Origin: Chthonomonadales bacterium
Lineage (GTDB): Bacteria; Armatimonadota; Chthonomonadetes; Chthonomonadales; Chthonomonadaceae
Assembly: GCA_038217285.1 (NCBI GenBank)
Contig: JBBQPO010000026.1
Location: forward strand, 1-33,070
Direction of reading: 5' to 3'
Length of the DNA stretch: 33,070 nt
Shown: positions 1-30,989 of the stretch, one piece after another
Position numbering within the stretch: position 1 is the first letter of the stretch
Layout: each line of letters opens with the position of its first letter
Program-made: the position numbers and the translations under genes
Notes under the pieces: generated by a model
The model's input: only the letters and a program-made list of their open reading frames with translations
What the model was told of the DNA's origin: nothing
The model's database searches: none

Positions 1-48
1 CCGTCCGTACAGCCATAATATATCACCCGCGTAGCTTCGCTCCAGACC

Positions 49-140
49 GTTCAGATTGAAACGGAATCAGTGTTCATTTTGAACGCGATTCAGTGTTCAT
101 TTTGAAACGGAATCAGTGTTCAAATTCGCCGGAATGTACA
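49..140. mobile_element. Terminal end of an IS21-family insertion sequence (probably right end), four tandem 23-bp transposase-binding-like repeats
   Basis: Units GTTCAGATTGAAACGGAATCAGT (49-71), GTTCATTTTGAACGCGATTCAGT (72-94), GTTCATTTTGAAACGGAATCAGT (95-117), GTTCAAATTCGCCGGAATGTACA (118-140). Reverse complement begins TGTACATTCCGGCGAATTTGAACAC: a TG terminus with multiple internal repeats, as in IS21-family ends. The transposase lies outside the window. Confidence 0.8.
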
Positions 141-147
141 CACGAAC

Positions 148-1062
148 ATGTCAGAACATGGTTTCTCAAGACTGAGTTGGCATAGCCACATCGAGGCAGA
201 GGCACTTCATCCGTGGCGCTTGTCTCGGACGCATCTCACAGAGAACTTGCAGCCGATTCTCGCCGCTAACGCCTTGCTTGCTCCAGAGGGTCCATTGCGC
301 CGTGAGACATTATGGTGCATGGCATTGCAGGCAATCAGCGCTGGCAACGTAAGAACAGACCCAATTCCCTTGAGCCAACTGGAAGATATCTTGGGAAAGT
401 TGCCGAGCGGGGTTCCCATCCAATTCGGAAGTACAAACCATACATACACACCGACGCTAATTGACGCTCTGCGGCTTGAGATCCAGAAACTACGGCAAGA
501 TGGAGAATCCTCAATGCCGTTTCCCCACCTTGCCCCCGACGTTACACCGCCCTTTGTCGAGTTCAGATACAGCAGTTGGGAGTCGTATTCAGACGAACAA
601 ATGATCGAGTTAATTCGCCAAGTGTATGCAGACGCCCTCGAAGGCTATGCGCAACTTGTAGACACTTACTTTCCGAAGTTTGCAATCGCGTTGCCTACCT
701 ATACACTTCTGCCGGTCAAACTCACAGGGTTTTTCTGCGCTCCGAAGCGAGATCAACCCCGATGGAGTGATAGTGGCCCATGGCTGGGACGTTTCATGGA
801 CGTGTTGGCACCAGGCAGCAAAAATGGTGTTGAAATCATCAATGGTGATTTTCAAATGCTCGAAGATGCCCAAGATAAATCTTATAACCGCCGTCAATTG
901 TTACGTCCGACTCGCATTGAGAATCAGAGGATGAGTATGATTATGGGAGGGCCGCCAGTGTTCGGACCCGACCCAGCAACACGACTGGCATACTCGTGGC
1001 TAAGGAGCGATTTAAACGATGTTGGATGGTTGTCCAGATCACACGATTCAGGTTTTGCCTAA
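148..1062 (+). pseudogene. Hypothetical protein, probably the C-terminal remnant of a larger gene interrupted by the IS
   Basis: 304-aa ORF. The frame is open back into the IS end, the ATG lies just downstream of the IS terminus at 140 and has no RBS, and codon usage is lower-GC. Confidence 0.5.
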
Positions 1063-1408
1063 ACGTCGGTTAGGTATTCGATTCAACGCCCAAGCAAAAT
1101 AAATGCCTATGGAGTGTGAACGAGCGAGCCGTCCGATAGAGTAGAATGATTCTGGTTAGCTCCCTCTCTTGGTTTCGGTAACCGAAAGAATACCTCATGA
1201 CCGCCCGCTTTCTCTTAGCGATCTGATCTAATTCTCCAGAAAGACGTGTACACTACCTGCAAATTTGCCGAAGTAGTCCGGTGATCACAGAACATTGAAT
1301 ATTACATGGATCGACCAGCCCCCAGACACAGAAGTTAGGACGGATATCTGTAAAAACTAAACCCATCTTATGGCTGGACGGGGTAGGATGCAGACCTGTT
1401 GAAGACGC

Positions 1409-1615
1409 TTATTTGGCGGGGATGAGACGATTTGCCGAGACGGGTTTTTGCGGTAATTGACCGTTGGTGAACATACCGGTCATATCGGTTTCCTCTACGC
1501 CCGGTGTTCGGTAGGCAAGAAATGCCAGTGCTTCTTCCGGCGTCATCTGCCGTATCGTCTCAACTATGGCAGCGATCACTTTCGGATCGCCTGGATTTCC
1601 TCTTTTGAGTTTCAT
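1409..1615 (-). CDS. Small hypothetical protein (68 aa), possible antitoxin partner of the upstream ART-like gene
   Basis: GGAGGT RBS before ATG at 1615; co-oriented 47 nt downstream of 1663..2262. Confidence 0.6.
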   Translation of the reverse strand: MKLKRGNPGDPKVIAAIVETIRQMTPEEALAFLAYRTPGVEETDMTGMFTNGQLPQKPVSANRLIPAK

Positions 1616-1662
1616 AGATACCTCCGATCTCTCCTTTTTTGAGAAAAGAAAAACGTCCGCTT

Positions 1663-2262
1663 TCAGGGAAATTGTACCAGAGATGCCCGCAAGATGCAAG
1701 CAGTATCGCGCACGGCAATCTGAGTATGCGCCTTCTGCAGGATCTTGGATCCGGGATAGATTGGAGCGCCTTCGGCAAAGCTGCCCCGTACCGTTTGCAG
1801 TGGGGTGGCGACGTCCTGAGCGAAGACGCGGCAGTAAGCATCGATAATCTCACGATCCAGGAAGTGCGCTCCCCGCTCGGTGTTTCGTGGCATCCGCTCG
1901 GCTCCAGCCATCTCCGCAAACGATTTGTACGTCTCACTCAAATCAGGAATATGCTTGATGTCCAAGAGGTTCAGGCAACGTCCCAGTTTGATGGTCGCCC
2001 GTATGACGGTAGGGTTTCCGCCTTCCTGATTGCACTTCTGTTCTGCCCAATCGAAGGCGCGGTAGGGTGCGTATTCCCAGAAGTAGAAGCCTTCGCCAAG
2101 CCAGTCATAGGCGCGTGTGGAGGGGAGAAACCGCTGTTCCGCAAAGATATGGTCAGCAGTTTCCTGTGAGCAGCCATGATAGCCGATGATGGTGCGTGGC
2201 GCGGTTTGAAGTGCAAGTATCGAGCCAGTAAATTCTGTCAAACCAACTTGTCCTCCAGACAT
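1663..2262 (-). CDS. ADP-ribosyltransferase-fold-like protein (DUF3990-like), putative toxin; start uncertain
   Basis: Motifs GYHG, DWLGEGFYFWE, RAFDWA and a C-terminal HTQIAVRD. Alternative TTG start at 2241 after GGAGGA. Confidence 0.6.
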   Translation of the reverse strand: MSGGQVGLTEFTGSILALQTAPRTIIGYHGCSQETADHIFAEQRFLPSTRAYDWLGEGFYFWEYAPYRAFDWAEQKCNQEGGNPTVIRATIKLGRCLNLLDIKHIPDLSETYKSFAEMAGAERMPRNTERGAHFLDREIIDAYCRVFAQDVATPLQTVRGSFAEGAPIYPGSKILQKAHTQIAVRDTACILRASLVQFP

Positions 2263-2625
2263 AGACAGGTAGGCAGGTTCAAAGCATAGAACCTGCCCGC
2301 TCGGAAGCATGTTCGCGCCAAAGTACGCCTTCTCCTGCTTTTGTGCCAGGTCTCAGCGACGGAAGCTCCAGGCATGTCGGCCAACGATATTCGGGCAGGC
2401 GCTGAATCGAGGGGCAGTAGCACTGTTTTCCCGTTCGGCCGAAAGAACTTCGATCACCCTCACGAGAATGGTTGCGGATCGCGAATGCCCTGGGCCTCCA
2501 CATGGACAAATATTGCGTCAACTGTTGCAATGATCGAAATCATCGAAACAGGAGAGTCGAGTGAACACCATTCGCCAACCAAAGGTTATTAATATAAACC
2601 AAAATAGAAGATGTATAGGACAGGT

Positions 2626-2667
2626 TTGTCAAAACAGTTCGGGCTATGGTATCTTCATTGTAGAAAC
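2626..2667 (+). promoter_or_regulatory. mazEF promoter with overlapping palindromic operator
   Basis: TTGTCA (2626-2631), 18-nt spacer, TGG-TATCTT (-10 at 2650-2655); imperfect palindrome GTATCTTCATTGTAGAAAC (2649-2667); AAGGAG RBS at 2676-2681. Confidence 0.6.
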
Positions 2668-2687
2668 ATTCAATCAAGGAGTAAGCT

Positions 2688-2927
2688 ATGCTGGCACACG
2701 TTCACAAGTGGGGCAATAGCCTGGCGATACGTATTCCCAAGTCTTTCGCGACGGAAGCGCACTTAGAGCAAAATACTCCTATCAAGGTGTCCCTGCGCGA
2801 CGGTGAACTGATTATCGCGCCGATCAAGCCTGGTTATACGTTGGAGGCTTTGCTGGCGCAAGTCACCGAACAGAATATGCATCAGGAGCAGGAAATCGGA
2901 TCAGCAGTCGGACGCGAGGAGTGGTAA
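2688..2927 (+). CDS. mazE: AbrB/MazE family antitoxin
   Basis: KWGNSLAIRIP N-terminal motif, YTLEALLAQVT, C-terminal VGREEW; 3 nt upstream of mazF. Confidence 0.93.
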   Translation: MLAHVHKWGNSLAIRIPKSFATEAHLEQNTPIKVSLRDGELIIAPIKPGYTLEALLAQVTEQNMHQEQEIGSAVGREEW

Positions 2928-2930
2928 GAG

Positions 2931-3263
2931 ATGGCCTACACTCCCAAACGGGGCGATGTCGTCTGGATACAGATGACGCCACAGGCCGGTCATGAACAGG
3001 CAGGTCGCCGTCCCTCGCTGGTTCTCTCTCCGCAAACCTATAACGCTACGGTCGGTTTGGCTCTCTTCTGCCCGATCACGAACCAAATAAAGGGCTATCC
3101 TTTTGAAGTCCAGATACCTTCTGGTTCGGGTGTCTCTGGGGTGATCCTGGCGGATTAGGTGCGCAGTCTGGACTGGCGGGCGCGGCAGGCGGAGTTTATC
3201 TGTCAAGCTTCGGAAACCGTTCTATTGGAAGTAATGCAGAAGATCGACACCTTGTTACGCTGA
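2931..3263 (+). pseudogene. mazF: MazF/PemK endoribonuclease toxin interrupted by an in-frame TAG at 3156-3158
   Basis: RGDVVW, GHEQAGRRP, PITNQIKGYPFEV, then ILAD*VRSLDWRAR continuing in frame to TGA at 3261-3263 (110 codons). The family consensus has Gln at the stop position (ADQVKSLDWRAR). Confidence 0.92.
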
Positions 3264-4519: not shown

Positions 4520-4721
4520 AGTCTGTAAAACCTTCTATGGCTCGATTGCATGCGAACTGTTTGTACCACCAGATTGGCGTCCAGGCGATAGAGCAAGCCA
4601 TCTCTAGTGGCCCCATGTTCCTCACCCGGATCGGCAACTCCTGCGGCTGGCATGGCGGCGACGGGTTAAAATCATTCGCGTGACAACACGCTACGGGTTT
4701 GTCCTACTTTTCTCGCCGACG

Positions 4722-4751
4722 TGTTACCCGCGAAGGCAATCGAATGCGTCC
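4722..4751 (+). promoter_or_regulatory. Possible ECF-type autoregulatory promoter
   Basis: TGTTACCC-N17-CGTCC upstream of the ECF sigma gene; loose motif match only. Confidence 0.25.
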
Positions 4752-4794
4752 TTATAATAAGGGGCGGCGAGGCCGTATAATTCAGGACGGAAAT

Positions 4795-5976
4795 ATGTCG
4801 GATACAGAACGGTTTGTCAGAGAAGCGCTTTCCGCACAGAGTTCGGACGCCGAGAAGCATCTCGCGTTCGGCGAGCTGGTGGCTCGGTTCCAGGACATGG
4901 CATTCGGTTATGCCTATTCCCTCGCCGGCGACATCACGATCGCCGAGGAGGCGGCGCAAGAGGCCTTCGTCAGCGCCTGGCAGCGCCTTCACCAGTTGCG
5001 GGAACCGGCCGCGTTCCCGGCATGGTTCAAGCGGATCGTCTTCACACAGTGCTGCAGTTTGATCCGGCGAAAGCCGATAGCGACCGTGTCTTTAGAGGAG
5101 TACGCGTCCACGGACCGTCAGAATGTGTTGCAGGCGAATGCGAATAACCTGTGGGAAGAGGCCGAGAGGCGCGCAGAGGTGCAAATGGCCGTCAGTCAGC
5201 TTCCGGAAGGCGAGCGCGTTGTCACCGTACTCTTCTACATCAATGAGTACTCCAGGGCCGAGATCGCCGGATTTCTGGGCGTCACCGAGGAAGCGGTCAA
5301 GAAGCGCCTTGCCTCCGCACGAAGGCGAATGAAGAAAGGAATGATTTCCATGGTTCAAGAAGATTTGCATGCGCGTCGCCCCTCTCAGGATCCGGTGTTC
5401 CAACAGAAGGTGATCGCGTTCTGCCTGCAGTTCGGGGAGTTGCTGCGCGGTGGCACTCCGATACTCAAGACGCTCGAAATGTGTGCTGCGGCGCACGCCG
5501 ACGATGCGCGGTTCCAGCAGGCGGTCGTCGAGATGCGTCAAACGGTGATGCGTGGTGAACCTCTCTCCGCGGTCCTGTCTCGTTATGAGGATCTTTTCCC
5601 GGCTCCGGTAGCTCGCGCAATCGACATCGGCGAGGAGAAAGGCACCCTCGACATCGTGCTGGATCGCCTTGCCCGAGGAGCGAGTTTTGCCGAAGTATCC
5701 ACGCTTGAGGCGCTGATAGTCGAGATGCAAGCGGTCGCCGATGCGCGACAGCATCTGCCCAACGTGATGGCGCACTTTCCCCATCTGTTTCGCGAAGAAG
5801 ATCTGATGGTGGTTCGAATGGGAGCGGATATTGGAGAGAAGAACGGATTTATCGATCTGGCCGTTCAGCGATTGGCCTGCGGTGAACGCTTTGATACCGA
5901 AGCAAAACAACAGGCCTTTCGAGAAAGATTGCTGGCTCTTCGAGAACGTATAAAATCCGTGGAGGCCGCAAACTGA
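4795..5976 (+). CDS. ECF sigma-70 factor with a C-terminal PilC/GspF (T2SSF)-like domain
   Basis: Region 2 (AEEAAQEAFVSAWQRLHQLREPAAFPAWFKRI), region 4 HTH (SRAEIAGFLGVTEEAVKKRLASARRRM), then FCLQFGELLRGGTPILKTL...GEPLSAVL...FP...IGEEKGTLDIVLDRLA. Confidence 0.88.
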   Translation: MSDTERFVREALSAQSSDAEKHLAFGELVARFQDMAFGYAYSLAGDITIAEEAAQEAFVSAWQRLHQLREPAAFPAWFKRIVFTQCCSLIRRKPIATVSLEEYASTDRQNVLQANANNLWEEAERRAEVQMAVSQLPEGERVVTVLFYINEYSRAEIAGFLGVTEEAVKKRLASARRRMKKGMISMVQEDLHARRPSQDPVFQQKVIAFCLQFGELLRGGTPILKTLEMCAAAHADDARFQQAVVEMRQTVMRGEPLSAVLSRYEDLFPAPVARAIDIGEEKGTLDIVLDRLARGASFAEVSTLEALIVEMQAVADARQHLPNVMAHFPHLFREEDLMVVRMGADIGEKNGFIDLAVQRLACGERFDTEAKQQAFRERLLALRERIKSVEAAN

Positions 5977-5980
5977 AACG

Positions 5981-6024
5981 GAGCGATGCTACATAGCTCC
6001 TCCACAGTCACCTTCGCATCGCTC
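5981..6024. terminator. Inverted repeat after the sigma gene, possible terminator or stabilising hairpin
   Basis: GAGCGATGC (5981-5989) and GCATCGCTC (6016-6024); long loop, no U-tract. Confidence 0.3.
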
Positions 6025-6075
6025 ATAAGAAATCCAAACGGCAATAATTTTGCACTAAATATATGGCGCAGGCGC

Positions 6076-6104
6076 TTGACGTAGACTGTCCGCTTGTGTA
6101 TAAT
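6076..6104 (+). promoter_or_regulatory. Sigma-70 promoter of the Dyp/P450 operon
   Basis: TTGACG-N17-TATAAT. Confidence 0.8.
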
Positions 6105-6271
6105 GGTCTTGTTTCTTCCGGTTCAGGCGGAGCCAACTGCCAACCTGCCTGCTAACCGCGCCAGAGAGAGATGATGTTGGAAATGCTTCGCCCTGGCCTG
6201 CAACCGTCGGTCGCTGCCCCCTCCTTTCATGCCCATCGTTTTCGGGAAGCGAACTCCTGGAAGAGGACGCC

Positions 6272-7564
6272 ATGAGTCAAAACGCATTATCGGTTATTAC
6301 CCCCATCAATCCTGCCGATCGGAAGGCCCTTGAGGATCTCCTGGACGTCATTGGAAACGATATCAAGGGGAAAGGCGACAACCACTATATCCAGTTCACC
6401 GATCTCACCACCATCCATTTCGCCTGTTGGGTCGTTCTGAGAAGCGCTCCCGACACCGAGGCTCCCGCGCGGAGCTACCCCGACACCCTGGTGCTGGAAA
6501 CCAACTTCGACGGCGATCTCGATTCCCATCTGGACGAGCTGATCGCACGGGGTGGGACAGCTCTCAACGCCATCTACAGCGCCTGCGTAGGGTGGCCTGC
6601 GGGAGGGACCGCCGACCCTGCGGCGGCGAAACAGTATCTCAAAAGCCACGCCGTGCCCACGCCCGCTTTCTACATCGGCTGTCCCGGCCATACGCTCGGC
6701 AATATCCGCAATGCGATTGCGGTCCGCGAAGAGCTGGAGGCCTTTCTCGATTCCGAGCAGGAGAAGCAGCCGTTGACCGGCCTGTCGCCCGGACAGGTCC
6801 GACAGAAACTGCTGACCTACCTGCAGCAGCAGGCACAGGCCAAACCGGAGATCTCGTCGGAGACACTGGAGGCCCAGACCAAACGTTCCGGGCGCAACGT
6901 TATACTGGCCCTCCTGATCGCCGTGCCTATCCTGATCCTGACCCTGCCCCTGCTGGTGATCTGGTATATCGTCCTGCGGTGGCACGAAGTCAAAGATGCA
7001 GGCAAGCCGCTTCCGCCGCCGCGTCCGATCGACCCGCGTCTGTTCGGCAAAGAGGACTACTGCGTTCAGAACCACCTGACGACCCTCGTCGAGGTCAAGC
7101 CGGGCGCGTTTCGCCTCTACACGCTCAAAGGGATCCTCGCGGTTATCAATCTGCTGGCGAAAACCATCTTCATCACCGGCCAACTGGGCGGCATTCCGAC
7201 GATCCACTTCGCCCGCTGGCTCCTGATGGACAACGACCGGCGTCTGCTCTTCTTCAGCAACTACGATGGAAGCTGGGCCAGCTACCTCGGCGATTTCGTG
7301 GACAAAGCGAACTATGGCCTGACCGCCGTCTGGAGCAATACGGACCGTTTTCCTCCGGCCAACAACCTGGCCCGGGGTGGGGCGCAGCATATCGAAGCCT
7401 TCAAACAGTGGAGTCGAGAGCACAATATCTATGCGGCGGTCTGGTACAGCGCCTATCCCGATGAGACGCTGCGCAACCTCAAAAACGATATTCGGATTCG
7501 CGATCAGATTGCCGCCCTCAACCTTTCGGAAGCGGACGTCACGGCGCTCCTCCAGCTTCTGTAG
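6272..7564 (+). CDS. Uncharacterised membrane-anchored protein with two homologous domains, first gene of the Dyp operon
   Basis: GAGGA RBS; the motif set QNxL...IHFAxW...LxxxxN[FY]DG occurs twice around a central hydrophobic helix; high-GC codon usage. Confidence 0.85.
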   Translation: MSQNALSVITPINPADRKALEDLLDVIGNDIKGKGDNHYIQFTDLTTIHFACWVVLRSAPDTEAPARSYPDTLVLETNFDGDLDSHLDELIARGGTALNAIYSACVGWPAGGTADPAAAKQYLKSHAVPTPAFYIGCPGHTLGNIRNAIAVREELEAFLDSEQEKQPLTGLSPGQVRQKLLTYLQQQAQAKPEISSETLEAQTKRSGRNVILALLIAVPILILTLPLLVIWYIVLRWHEVKDAGKPLPPPRPIDPRLFGKEDYCVQNHLTTLVEVKPGAFRLYTLKGILAVINLLAKTIFITGQLGGIPTIHFARWLLMDNDRRLLFFSNYDGSWASYLGDFVDKANYGLTAVWSNTDRFPPANNLARGGAQHIEAFKQWSREHNIYAAVWYSAYPDETLRNLKNDIRIRDQIAALNLSEADVTALLQLL

Positions 7565-7660
7565 ACCGTCCGCGACACTGTCACCCAGAGGGAGACGCCA
7601 TCCTCCGGAGACGCTGTTTCACAAGTTTGCCGCTCTCTGTTGCTTCGACGGTGAGGTGCG

Positions 7661-8146
7661 GTGAAAGGAGATCCTGTGGCAATCTATCCGCTGGCTTTCA
7701 AAATCTTCAGTCTGCTGGTCGTTCCCTTCTGGCTGGCGATGATCTTTCTGCCGCGCTGGGACGTGACCCGCAAGGTCATGGGATCGCTCTGGACCGTCTT
7801 CTTCTTCGCGCTGCCCTATACGCTGCTGCAGATACCGTTCTATCTGTCGTCGCTGCCTCTGTTAGCGCGCCCGGAGATCGATAAGATTCAGCAGTTGCTC
7901 GGGTCGCAGCCTATGACGACCCAGGCGTGGCTGCACTTTATCGCGGTCGATCTCTTCGCAGGCCGCTGGATCTATCTGGACAGTCGGGCACGCGATGTCT
8001 CCCCCTGGATCGTGGGGCCTCTGTTGTTTATGACGACGATATTCGGCCCGACTGGCCTGGCGTTGTACCTGCTGTTCCGCCTGCTGCAACGCCCTGTGGA
8101 GACCTCCGCGTCCGCCGATCCGACCGGCGGAGGATCAACCGGTTGA
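7661..8146 (+). CDS. ABA4-like / DUF4281 family membrane protein
   Basis: Several hydrophobic segments; PFWLAMIFLPRW, AWLHFIAVDLFAGRWIYLD, FGPTGLALYL; GTG start after GAGGTG. Confidence 0.85.
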   Translation: MKGDPVAIYPLAFKIFSLLVVPFWLAMIFLPRWDVTRKVMGSLWTVFFFALPYTLLQIPFYLSSLPLLARPEIDKIQQLLGSQPMTTQAWLHFIAVDLFAGRWIYLDSRARDVSPWIVGPLLFMTTIFGPTGLALYLLFRLLQRPVETSASADPTGGGSTG

Positions 8147-8163
8147 TTTTTTATCGCCTCCTT

Positions 8164-8204
8164 GCGGCGCAGCCGCCGGGGTGAATCGCAGCGGCGCAGC
8201 CGCC
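8164..8204. repeat. Two copies of the palindromic 14-mer GCGGCGCAGCCGCC (REP-like)
   Basis: Copies at 8164-8177 and 8191-8204; each folds as GCGGC-GCA-GCCGC. Confidence 0.6.
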
Positions 8205-8251
8205 AGAGAGAATTGCAAGGAGAGGCGGAGACGTCTGGAAGGAGGAGAAAG

Positions 8252-9751
8252 ATGCTGGACCTGCCGGATATTCAAGGGATCGTCTTCACAGGCTACGGGC
8301 ATATGCCCCACTCTCGGTTTCTGTTTCTGGACATCACCGATCGGAAGGCGGCGCAGGCCTGGCTGACGCTCGTGCTGCCCTGTATCGTGACCGGGGAACG
8401 CCGGGAGAAAAACTCTCCCAAACCGCATACCAGCGCGCACATCGCCCTGAGCTCGCCAGGACTGCAGCAACTCGGCCTGACCCAGGACGCGCTCGATACC
8501 TTCCCGCGCGAATTTACCGAGGGCATGGCGTACGGCCAACGCCCGCGTGTGCTGGGGGACACCGGGGCGAGCGATCCGCAAAACTGGCAGTTCGGCGGAC
8601 CCACCCAGCCGGAGATCCACCTGCTGCTGGCCCTCTATGCGACCAGTGAGACCCACCTGGAGGCGCTCAAGCAGGAGGCCTGGTATCCGGACGGCGCCAA
8701 TCATGGCCTCGGGCTGATCCTCCAACAGGACTCCTTCCGGAAATGCGATAACGAACCGTTCGGCTTTCGAGACGGGATCGGCCAGCCTACTCTGGAAGGC
8801 AACCCTGTTCCGGCCGCTCCCGGTCAGGCCATCCTGAACCCCGGTGAGTTCCTGTTGGGCTACACGAACGGCTATGACAATCTCTCCCCGGTCCCGACCG
8901 TCTCCGCCGCGCTGGATACCGGTCGTCTGCTTCCTGCCGACAGCATTCTGCCTGATCGCAGGGCGTTCGGTCTGAACGGCAGTTTCCTGGTCTTTCGCAA
9001 ACTCAAACAGGATGTCGCGGGCTTCTGGAAGTACTTCGAGCAGAAGACGCTGAATCCGGATGGCACTCCGAACCTGGAGCAGAAGGTCTTGCTGGCCTCG
9101 AAGTGCGTCGGCCGCTGGCCCAGCGGCGCGGCGCTCACGCTCACTCCCGAGAGAGACGATCTGTCGCTTGCCGGGGACAACCCCCATATCGACGATTTCA
9201 AGTTTGCCGCCACGGACCTGTCCGGGTTCGCCTGTCCTATCGGATCGCATATCCGCCGCACCAATCCCCGCGATGCCCTGGAGCCGAATGCGTCGGAGAA
9301 GGCGCTGATCATTTCCAACCGTCACCGGATCATGCGGCGTGGCAGGCCGTACGAAACGCCGCTGCTGCCCGAGGCCAACTCTCCTCCCACCGCGCCCGGG
9401 GCTCCGCCTGCCTCGATAGACCGAGCGGCCGCAGCGGAGGCCCATGCGGAAGGAAATGGCGAGCCGAAGCCGACGGAACAGGGGATCTACTTCCTCTGCA
9501 TCAACGCCGATATCCAGCGCCAGTTCGAGTTCATCCAGCAGACCTGGGCTAACAACGCCAAGTTCAACGGCCTCTACGACAACAAAGATCCGATCATCGG
9601 AGACAACGACGGCACCGGTGTCATGGTGCTGCAGAATAGTCCGGTGCGTACCACGATACACGACCTGCCCCGCTTTGTCGAGATGCGGGGAGGCGGCTAC
9701 TTCTTTCTGCCGGGCCTGCGCGCCCTGCGCTTTCTCGCCGGACTACCGTGA
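8252..9751 (+). CDS. Dyp-type (dye-decolorizing) heme peroxidase
   Basis: DIQG N-terminus, GxxDG motif (FGFRDG), GRWPSGA, proximal His in GSHIRRTNPRD, RIMRRGRPY, QFEFIQQTWAN, GGGYFFLPG; AGGAGG RBS before ATG at 8252. Confidence 0.93.
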   Translation: MLDLPDIQGIVFTGYGHMPHSRFLFLDITDRKAAQAWLTLVLPCIVTGERREKNSPKPHTSAHIALSSPGLQQLGLTQDALDTFPREFTEGMAYGQRPRVLGDTGASDPQNWQFGGPTQPEIHLLLALYATSETHLEALKQEAWYPDGANHGLGLILQQDSFRKCDNEPFGFRDGIGQPTLEGNPVPAAPGQAILNPGEFLLGYTNGYDNLSPVPTVSAALDTGRLLPADSILPDRRAFGLNGSFLVFRKLKQDVAGFWKYFEQKTLNPDGTPNLEQKVLLASKCVGRWPSGAALTLTPERDDLSLAGDNPHIDDFKFAATDLSGFACPIGSHIRRTNPRDALEPNASEKALIISNRHRIMRRGRPYETPLLPEANSPPTAPGAPPASIDRAAAAEAHAEGNGEPKPTEQGIYFLCINADIQRQFEFIQQTWANNAKFNGLYDNKDPIIGDNDGTGVMVLQNSPVRTTIHDLPRFVEMRGGGYFFLPGLRALRFLAGLP

Positions 9752-27878: not shown

Positions 27879-29156
27879 TCAGCCAATGGTACGAATGTAG
27901 GTGTTACCGGGCAGGCGGCGCACCAGACCTTCCAGTTCCAGAAAGATCAGCTCGATACCGGCTTCGGTCGCGGGGATGCTGGCGCGTTGGGCGAGTTGGT
28001 CGAGATGCTGCGGCGTCTGGGTGAGGTTTTCCATCAACTGTCGTCTCAGCGGGGGCAGAGAGCGGAGTAAGGCGCTGATGTCGGATGCGGGAGCGGTAGC
28101 GACCACCGCTCGATTCGGAGCCTCTTCCATTCGGTCTGTTTTGAGGGCAGGGCGGCGTTCGCGCAGGTCGAGAACGCCCTGCGAGGCGGAAGGGGCGGCG
28201 AGGGGCAGCAGATTCACGGAGCGGAGGATATCGACCATCTCCGTCACCATTGTCGCGCCGTCTTTGATGAGGTCGTTGCAGCCTTCGCTGGAGAGTCGGT
28301 CGATGTTCCCTGGCACCGCCAGCACCGGTCTGCCCTGATCGGCGGCAAAACTCGCCGTGATCAGCGCGCCGCTCTTGCGGGGCGCCTCGATGACCAGCAC
28401 CGCCAGCGACATCGCGCTGATGAGGCGATTGCGGGCCGGGAACCGCCAGGCTTCCGGCTGCGCTCCAAGCGGGTTTTCGGAGATCATCGCGCCCTGCTGG
28501 ATAATCTGCTCGAAGAGGTGACGATTCTCGCGAGGATAGTCCACATCCAGCCCGCAGCCGAGAAAGGCCAGAGTCCGACCGCCCCCCGACAGAGCGCCGC
28601 GATGCGCCGACGCGTCTATCCCGACCGCGCCCCCGCTGACAGTGGCGATATTCTGCTCAGCCAGTTCACGGCTCATGCGCTCTGCGGTCGCTCGCCCGTA
28701 AGGCGTGGCATGGCGGGAGCCGACGATGCCGATGCTGTGGCTGTCGTCCGGCTGCAGCGTGCCGCGCACGAAGAGAATAGGCGGCGCATCCGGCAGGATC
28801 TCCAGAGGCTCCGGATATTCCGGGCGACCGCGCAACGCCAGCCAGACACCCTGTTTCTCGATCCAGGCGACCTGTCTCTCCGTCGGCAGAGTCAGGGGAT
28901 CCCGCAGACGCACCAGATGTCGCGCCTGAAACCCCGGCACCGGATCGAGTTCAGCGTCCGTGGCGGCAAAGATACGCAGGGGATCGTTGTCGAAATGGGC
29001 CAACAGTGTTGCCAGCAGACGAGGGGACAGGGAGACATTGGCGAGATGCAGCCAGGCGCGCAACGTGTCCCCATCCAGAGGTTGGGATGGGGACATCGCG
29101 CCGGCAGAAGGGGAGGCCGGAGAAACCATCGATAGGTTGGTATCGAGAGCAGCCAT
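27879..29156 (-). CDS. dprA: DNA-processing protein DprA (Smf)
   Basis: YPEPL, PPILFVRG, IVGSR, VSGGAVGID, FPARNRLIS, EAPRKSGALITA, VPGNID, C-terminal winged helix. Confidence 0.95.
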   Translation of the reverse strand: MAALDTNLSMVSPASPSAGAMSPSQPLDGDTLRAWLHLANVSLSPRLLATLLAHFDNDPLRIFAATDAELDPVPGFQARHLVRLRDPLTLPTERQVAWIEKQGVWLALRGRPEYPEPLEILPDAPPILFVRGTLQPDDSHSIGIVGSRHATPYGRATAERMSRELAEQNIATVSGGAVGIDASAHRGALSGGGRTLAFLGCGLDVDYPRENRHLFEQIIQQGAMISENPLGAQPEAWRFPARNRLISAMSLAVLVIEAPRKSGALITASFAADQGRPVLAVPGNIDRLSSEGCNDLIKDGATMVTEMVDILRSVNLLPLAAPSASQGVLDLRERRPALKTDRMEEAPNRAVVATAPASDISALLRSLPPLRRQLMENLTQTPQHLDQLAQRASIPATEAGIELIFLELEGLVRRLPGNTYIRTIG

Positions 29157-30961: not shown

Positions 30962-30989
30962 TAGACGCGTCGTCGAAGGCGAACGTTAC
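30962..30989 (-). promoter_or_regulatory. Possible ECF-type promoter of the beta-propeller-dprA operon
   Basis: Minus strand GTAAC-N17-CGTCTA. Confidence 0.35.

Follow-up and report, generated by a model that had tools for sequence, protein, structure and literature searches.

The 33,070-nucleotide contig JBBQPO010000026.1 of a Chthonomonadales bacterium (assembly GCA_038217285.1; the whole contig is hereafter called the window) carries on its forward strand, at positions 4795–5976, a gene for a 393-residue extracytoplasmic function (ECF) sigma factor with a C-terminal extension that resembles the soluble part of the PilC/GspF platform proteins. Among sigma factors, the counterparts of 'one-component systems' are ECF factors with fused regulatory domains, and work on them has been confined to a few kinds of extension (SnoaL, TPR, Cys-rich). 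The combination of a sigma factor with a soluble PilC-type domain is apparently a recurring, undescribed design. The extension probably regulates the sigma factor, and we put at about even the chances of a more specific proposal, namely that the protein is a one-component ECF factor whose PilC-like extension is regulatory and acts via a T2SSE-type ATPase or another component of the machine, a partner that is itself presumed. Such an extension would wire the type IV pilus or the type II secretion motor directly to RNA polymerase.

Sigma core and PilC/GspF-like extension

The gene product, delimited as an open reading frame (ORF) and by Pfam, is labelled P0001, and residue numbers refer to its 393-residue chain; the ATG at 4795 is taken as the start because P0002 and P0003, homologues with 81% identity, have matching N-termini. 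Pfam places sigma region 2 at residues 28–93 (4876–5073; Sigma70_r2, E 1.1e-10) and sigma region 4 at residues 127–179 (5173–5331; Sigma70_r4_2, E 2.9e-11), separated by about 33 residues and without a match to Sigma70_r3 or Sigma70_r1 at E up to 10, while the NCBIfam profile sigma70-ECF TIGR02937 scores 79.3 bits against a cut-off of 42.9. By these profile matches, two regions joined by a short linker, P0001 is classed as an ECF (group 4) sigma-70 factor. Sigma4 is followed by an extension of about 200 residues; the linker after sigma4 (5359–5412) contains a motif found clade-wide, L191..R195-P196-S197.D199..F202, assigned through the conservation of P196.

The T2SSF family (PF00482) matches residues 209–294 (E 5.8e-12; 46.1 bits, curated cut-off 25.2), and the match spans profile positions 1–86 of 125, that is, the soluble part only; a HofC/PilC-type NCBIfam profile covers residues 197–294. 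Together with the fold and the signature discussed below, this delimits a soluble helical-bundle domain at residues 201–296 (5395–5682). Behind it lies a degenerate half copy at residues 308–363 (5716–5883): residues 244–295 align with 308–363 at 32% identity (BLASTP, E 6e-6), and the family hidden Markov model (HMM) matches residues 302–362 (iE 0.0011). The chain ends in a long predicted helix (residues 369–392, 5899–5970, assigned by DSSP in the AF2 model), which P0001 has in common with P0002–P0005. No transmembrane helix was found in P0001, whose highest Kyte-Doolittle 19-residue mean is 1.23, as against maxima of 1.9–3.2 and two to three segments each in the genome's five membrane T2SSF proteins; in place of two full T2SSF repeats with their transmembrane helices, P0001 has one domain and a half copy. 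A preliminary description of the gene, made from the sequence, had proposed an ECF sigma factor fused to a soluble PilC/GspF domain at residues ~209–293, followed by a degenerate half repeat and free of membrane helices, and it proved right in each detail of P0001 that was checked: all three Pfam families are matched, and the fold agrees.

The fold was assessed on an AF2 model built from an alignment of 39 fusion proteins (mean pLDDT 84.9, pTM 0.57), which is poor at residues 337–356 only. In structural comparisons with VIA-align (Foldseek was used as well), residues 201–296 returned a list headed by the cytoplasmic domains of OutF (domain I, 5nbg_B; Z 15.7, root-mean-square deviation (rmsd) 1.8 over 95 residues), PilC (N-terminal domain, 2whn_B; Z 15.6, rmsd 1.7 over 94) and EpsF (cyto1, 2vmb_B and 3c1q_B; Z 15.3, rmsd 1.6 over 95). 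The predicted structure thus confirms the T2SSF-type fold of the extension. The family HMM ranks the first cytoplasmic domain over the second in all five membrane T2SSF proteins of the genome (87.0 versus 55.9 bits in the PilC of contig C3), and by these profile scores the extension is nearest to the first cytoplasmic domain of PilC/GspF. F268, G279 and E280 are invariant in the 39 aligned sequences and fall within a G..GE..G.L signature that is common to the genome's own PilC-like domains. The C-terminal half of P0001 is 77% identical to those of P0002 and P0003 and 49% identical to that of P0005, compared with at most 86% for the sigma core.

Recurrence of the fusion and the domains that follow it

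Contigs assembled from two studies (run X1, 4896–5488; run X2, 5178–5567) cross the junction between sigma4 and T2SSF without differences, which rules out an assembly chimera. Nor is the protein a singleton: a sigma HMM and a T2SSF-like HMM, both derived from the 39-sequence alignment, match together in 40 of the 263 stored proteins (31 of them among 150 representatives), and at least 40 proteins keep the architecture, the most divergent at 32% identity. An exhaustive search of 50%-identity representatives gave 58,911 matches (E ≤ 0.001), and among the top 150 many have alignments that extend through residue ~295; in a word-based search, PF00482 was precomputed in 11 of the best 120 matches (hand count). 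The 39 sequences used for alignment were picked by these two features, precomputed PF00482 and alignment through residue ~295. T2SSF is matched at E up to 0.001 in 38 of the 39, and the transmembrane helices are cleanly lost in all but two of the 39. With residues 196–393 as the query, 3,888 word-sharing candidates yielded three fusion proteins and three ordinary T2SSF proteins of 404–405 residues, and the ESM Atlas returned plain sigma-factor clusters only, all with a score of 0.85. A locus search with P0001 recovered the full architecture in one of 20 loci, an Armatimonadota metagenome-assembled genome (L012) with two tandem genes for proteins of 418 residues each (6001–7257 and 7313–8569), both encoding sigma, T2SSF and the N2 domain described below. 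The upstream regions of these two copies contain no common motif by eye. The tandem genes are flanked by ORFs without a Pfam match.

What follows the T2SSF domain bears on its possible partner. A tail of at least 50 residues is present in 29 of the 40 fusion proteins (the scripted domain end is misplaced for a few, P0001 included). In P0149 the tail is a complete PilB/GspE-type ATPase (E 1.3e-98 to PilB, 5zfr), and in P0008, P0009 and P0122 it corresponds by sequence to the N2 region of that ATPase only. Nine further proteins (P0011, P0134, P0135, P0137, P0142, P0143, P0147, P0175 and P0196) have a tail of one type that is only weakly similar by hhalign (probability 36%, E 3.7e-4). P0011 was the one modelled (pLDDT 75.0), and the assignment of the other eight rests on their alignment with it at 40–73% identity. 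Residues 311–431 of the P0011 model superimpose on the N2 domain of EpsE/GspE (1p9w_A, Z 11.7; 4ksr_A, Z 11.5; rmsd 2.9 over 99–101 residues) and on BfpD (Z 11.0), with DotB and PilT weaker. In all, 13 of the 40 family members have a GspE/PilB N2-like domain directly after T2SSF, one of them with the whole ATPase. The remaining tails include Clp_N (5 of 39), a bifunctional-nuclease domain (one protein) and the half T2SSF repeat of P0001–P0005.

The same genome holds a second association of this kind. The nearest paralogue of the P0001 sigma core (E 1.3e-17) is a 220-residue ECF sigma factor on contig C245 (locus L043, 6344–7006, reverse strand), whose gene overlaps a downstream gene (5521–6366, reverse strand) for a 281-residue soluble protein with two T2SSF domains, both truncated at profile position 96. 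Genome G010 has such a pair as well, and G005 has it interrupted by stop codons; in G022 one short locus contains a sigma gene together with a T2SSF match of 76% identity (the ORF pick missed the T2SSF gene), and in G034 the sigma and T2SSF parts form one 470-residue ORF (L050, 631–2043). Judged by these gene arrangements, the C245 lineage is an independent sigma–T2SSF pair with split and fused forms. On contig C9 (locus L141, 3124–9151), two genes for T2SSF membrane proteins come after an ECF sigma gene and a zf-HC2 anti-sigma gene. Within one genome, T2SSF domains would thus serve as soluble modules for signalling in three settings: in the same chain as a sigma factor, adjacent to one, or next to a sigma/anti-sigma pair. 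The two C9 membrane proteins (467 and 565 residues) have long N-terminal extensions, with no ATPase or pilin gene beside them. A second soluble protein with two T2SSF domains, 41% identical to that of C245, is encoded on contig C96 (locus L044, 8561–9460, forward strand) with no adjoining sigma gene; large unannotated ORFs lie beside it on the opposite strand.

The sigma core of P0001 is 38–53% identical to those of hundreds of proteins that have in common the sequence RFQDMAxGYAYS and, after sigma4, the linker L...RPS.D..F. All 39 fusion proteins have P196 of this linker, and its conservation among the 150 nearest representatives reaches at least 90%, regardless of the C-terminal domain. C86 is the sole nearly invariant cysteine in the 150-sequence alignment (ECF57, a group with variable or WD40-like extensions, has two conserved cysteines joining sigma2 and sigma4). 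Among the best 120 matches of the word-based search, about 25 have ankyrin repeats, 22 have PF01409 and 10 have PF00583 (hand count). A Pfam scan of 12 chosen proteins found tRNA-synt_2d (the PheRS core), Rho_RNA_bind, FliG_C, FliM, ATP-synt_ab (with its N and C domains) and Polbeta, as well as HATPase_c, GNAT with DUF3471, GyrI-like, APH and BFN_dom. Many of the cassettes that share this sigma core and RPSxD linker (P0012–P0121) are pieces of core cell machines; if such exchange of copied machine parts proves general, it would amount to a new design principle for bacterial sensing. The architecture given in the preliminary description stands, while the variety of cassettes in the clade and the two further sigma–T2SSF loci had escaped it.

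Proposed regulation through a machine component and its alternatives

In the mechanism that we propose, residues 1–190 are the complete sigma2–sigma4 core of a one-component ECF factor, and residues 201–296 are a soluble PilC/GspF cytoplasmic bundle stripped of its membrane helices. This bundle would regulate the sigma factor from within the same chain and so take the role that a separate anti-sigma factor would otherwise have. The module would keep the binding function of its parent domain; a PilB/GspE-type ATPase, or some other part of a pilus-type machine, would bind the extension and decide the access of the sigma core to RNA polymerase. The occupancy of the motor or platform would in this way set sigma availability, in a mode like that proposed for ECF42, 'activated by protein interaction'. 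How pilus activity is sensed is an open question in surface sensing, and the sigma–PilC design would offer a simple protein pair for tests.

We favour this reading on account of the domain and its fold, its recurrence, the invariant residues and the ATPase-domain tails, and also of the sigma–T2SSF link in the C245 lineage and the lack of an adjoining anti-sigma gene. The ATPase link is counted in its favour, as indirect support, because of the N2-like tails of the 13 family members, P0149 with its full ATPase among them. A further, weak point for it is the compact arrangement of sigma2 and sigma4 in the model, described below. As the preliminary description had stated, no anti-sigma family was found in the ORFs neighbouring the P0001 gene; within P0001 itself, no family of the zf-HC2 or RskA type is matched by Pfam at E up to 10. 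Divergent anti-sigma domains often slip past profiles.

Several observations weigh against this proposal. There is no pilus, type II secretion or ATPase gene in the 33-kb window; the canonical type IV pilus operon lies on another contig, C3, where two T2SSE genes (592 and 476 residues), a T2SSF gene (417 residues), an A24 prepilin peptidase gene and a gene for an N_methyl protein are found together. In the subfamily P0001–P0005 the half T2SSF repeat stands in place of the N2 domain, so the ATPase link holds by family and not by P0001 itself. The nearest sigma cores carry many unrelated C-terminal domains, and the T2SSF label is clustered on a FastTree phylogeny (259 sigma cores) without forming one clade: it requires 17 changes, at least five of them forced by well-supported branches, as against 36.7 on average for shuffled labels (none of 500 shuffles was as low as 17). 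These label changes indicate that the extension is an exchangeable cassette, and such a cassette need not contact the sigma core specifically. A search with residues 196–393 through 60 relatives, of which 4 belong to the genus, 32 to the family and 24 to the order of this bacterium, found no copy of the gene: the best match had an E of 3.1e-9, and nearly all matches fell in ORFs of at least 400 residues, like platform proteins. In the four genomes from the genus, a search at the DNA level recovered the AlkZ-like neighbour (85–87% identity) and left the sigma gene unmatched; in one of them (G003) another gene adjoins AlkZ. On this comparative evidence the gene is accessory, and since no copy was found in any of the 60 relatives, the same-genus genomes included, it is dispensable. 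Finally, the two candidate promoters suggested in the preliminary description (4722–4751 and 30962–30989) did not hold up: their common pattern, GTWACS-N14-17-GCGTC, occurs 53 times in the genome and 64 times in block-shuffled sequence, and it was rejected as unsupported.

A first alternative, which we regard as doubtful, is that the helical bundle was taken up as a generic clamp of the anti-sigma kind, which inhibits the sigma factor purely in cis, has lost every link to pilus machines, and is relieved by proteolysis of the RPSxD linker or by a small ligand. The clade-wide conservation of the linker motif, whatever domain comes after it, is in keeping with this, as is the position of the soluble T2SSF protein on C245, which occupies the classical place of an anti-sigma gene; Table 2 of PMC8999054, the part of that review concerned here, lists ECF groups that are activated through proteolysis of their extensions. 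The model of the sigma core, too, is compact. Residues 1–95 resemble region 2 of sigmaE (Z 14.3, rmsd 1.8 over 88 residues), in keeping with the general match of the sigma part to ECF factors. Over its whole length the core superimposes on the anti-sigma-bound forms in SigW–RsiW (Z 14.0, rmsd 5.0 over 156) and CnrH–CnrY (Z 13.1, rmsd 3.8 over 149), whereas sigma forms bound to RNA polymerase fit it at rmsd 22–28. This arrangement of sigma2 and sigma4 is a weak hint at a closed state, weak because models may lean to crystal forms, and a complex prediction of residues 1–195 with 196–393 on the 39-row alignment, run without controls, is neutral on binding (score 0.00 against a mark of 0.32). Such a clamp, however, sits poorly with the retention of the T2SSF signature residues and with the lack of any anti-sigma family match in P0001, and the N2 domain or whole ATPase in 13 of the 40 relatives would be hard to explain if the link to the pilus were lost.

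Quite unlikely, in our view, is that the extension acts as a bait or decoy cassette, in which a foreign factor (a phage protein, a toxin or an antibiotic) or an unpaired subunit binds the sigma factor's copy of a machine part and triggers a response. The fusion of the nearest sigma cores to PheRS, Rho, FliG_C, FliM, ATP-synt_ab, Clp_N and other domains, the exchange of cassettes among close sigma cores and the accessory, patchy occurrence of the P0001 gene would all fit such a role. It is opposed by the lack of a defence-gene neighbourhood, in which PADLOC gave a single weak hit 2.5 kb off, and of any identified effector operon; moreover, ordinary ligand-binding and repeat domains are also listed among the cassettes, and the emphasis on 'machine fragments' may thus be a selective reading. 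A broader version of the same idea, to which we assign a low probability, is that P0001 belongs to a large, unrecognised class of modular ECF factors with exchangeable 'machine-mimic' bait cassettes on a sigma core and RPSxD linker. These might include the PilC cytoplasmic domain with or without PilB N2, FliG_C, FliM, the F1-ATPase alpha and beta subunits, the PheRS alpha core, the Rho RNA-binding domain, Clp_N and the GHKL ATPase. If so, anything that attaches to the real machine, whether an unpaired partner subunit, a protein from a phage or competitor, or an antibiotic directed at that target, would also bind the sigma factor and switch on transcription, and the class would parallel in bacteria the integrated decoys known from plant immune receptors.

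That the fusion is an evolutionary accident, a duplicated sigma2–sigma4 unit that landed in or beside a T2SSF gene and whose tail is tolerated without a regulatory role, is very improbable: capture of flanking sequence has been proposed as a source of the diverse extensions of Planctomycetes ECF factors (in the portion of PMC7671368 available), the gene is dispensable in relatives and a run X3 contig lacks 900 bases of it (4758 joined to 5659), but an accident would account poorly for an architecture kept with invariant signature residues over such divergence, for the clean loss of the transmembrane helices in nearly all members or for an independent lineage with split and fused forms.

Surroundings of the gene and comparison with known systems

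An intergenic region (4520–4794) separates the P0001 gene from a divergent AlkZ-like gene, and downstream lies a gene for a 430-residue protein without a family match, which has its own sigma-70-like promoter match. A homologue of the latter is present in a member of the genus (G004, a 420-residue ORF), where the ~600 bases beyond it hold short ORFs only and no sigma gene. The 430-residue protein is a membrane protein (6272–7564, forward strand) and, with a 529-residue protein containing DyP_N (8162–9751, forward strand), flanks an ABA4-like membrane protein; a P450 follows these three genes, and the 430/529-residue pair recurs as adjacent, more distant homologues on contig C146 (27% and 31% identity). 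Eight neighbours in the window gave no BLASTP match to the ORFs of loci L012 and L015. A neighbouring phosphorylase has its best matches at 67–68% identity, and these indicate Chthonomonadaceae (Armatimonadota) as the host family. The run X3 contig mentioned above derives from a ~95%-identical relative and skips exactly 900 bases, from the start codon through residue 288, while another contig of the same run has 5393–5590 intact; the join may represent a deletion allele.

Farther away, DprA (DNA-processing protein A; 27879–29156, reverse strand) is the window's sole gene related to competence or pili, 22 kb from the P0001 gene. PADLOC gave no hit for P0001 or its direct neighbours; its weak hit (PD-T4-9_A, E 8e-10) is to the ORF at 1663–2310 (reverse strand), which has an 82%-identical paralogue on contig C51. 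Positions 1–3000 have a G+C content of ~50–52%, compared with 57–67% over most of the remainder, and a 75-residue PemK/MazF-like toxin ORF at 2931–3158 (forward strand) covers profile positions 1–75 of 109 and looks truncated.

Among the papers listed by full-text literature searches, none pairs T2SSF or PF00482 with ECF or sigma-domain names, in line with the preliminary description, which knew of no such ECF group; a listing in supplementary material is still possible. The main text of the ECF reclassification (PMC7826278), in the portion available, lists other extension types and contains neither 'type II secretion' nor 'ankyrin', and the groups with extensions set out in the available part of the review PMC8999054 include none of the T2SSF kind. 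The extension groups described in those pages of PMC7826278 are ECF41, ECF56, ECF205, ECF294 and ECF295 (SnoaL), ECF42 (TPR) and ECF238, ECF287 and ECF288 (Cys-rich); membership of P0001 in the SnoaL, TPR or Cys-rich groups was ruled out, T2SSF alone being found after sigma4 by Pfam.

The closest parallel in layout is ECF42, which, according to the relevant part of PMC8999054, is likewise a one-component factor with a protein-binding extension of ~200 residues and no anti-sigma gene, and for which regulation via an unknown protein partner has been proposed (PMC8999054, same part). The extension of ECF42 is made of TPR, however, whereas that of P0001 is a T2SSF bundle on a sigma core from another clade with varying extensions. 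ECF41 and ECF56 (SnoaL-like; SigG1, 7qh5) also have a regulatory domain fused after sigma4, and the sigma part of the P0001 model superimposes on 7qh5_A with a Z of 11.5 (rmsd 4.8 over 142 residues); these groups have one extension type per sigma group as described in the consulted portion of PMC7826278, in contrast to the P0001 clade, where the extension is exchangeable and no SnoaL match is found. In its pattern of swapped, unrelated extensions, the P0001 clade resembles an ECF clade of the Planctomycetes in which a conserved sigma2–sigma4 core carries swapped, diverse extensions that arose from several sources (Pinto and da Fonseca 2020, PMC7671368, in the part available); neither 'T2SSF' nor 'secretion' occurs in the main text of that paper.

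With the platform proteins themselves (the cyto1 domain of GspF/EpsF/OutF and the N-terminal domain of PilC; 3c1q, 2vmb, 5nbg and 2whn), P0001 has in common the fold and the G..GE..G.L signature. Those proteins are membrane-bound, have two domains and are encoded in pilus or secretion operons, whereas P0001 lacks transmembrane helices, joins its sigma core to one full domain and a half copy, and is encoded outside any such operon. In the FlgM/sigma-28 checkpoint, an envelope-spanning assembly machine reports its state to a sigma factor through FlgM, a separate, exported anti-sigma factor. P0001 would resemble that checkpoint in logic only: nothing suggests export, and the domain derived from the machine is fused to the sigma factor itself.

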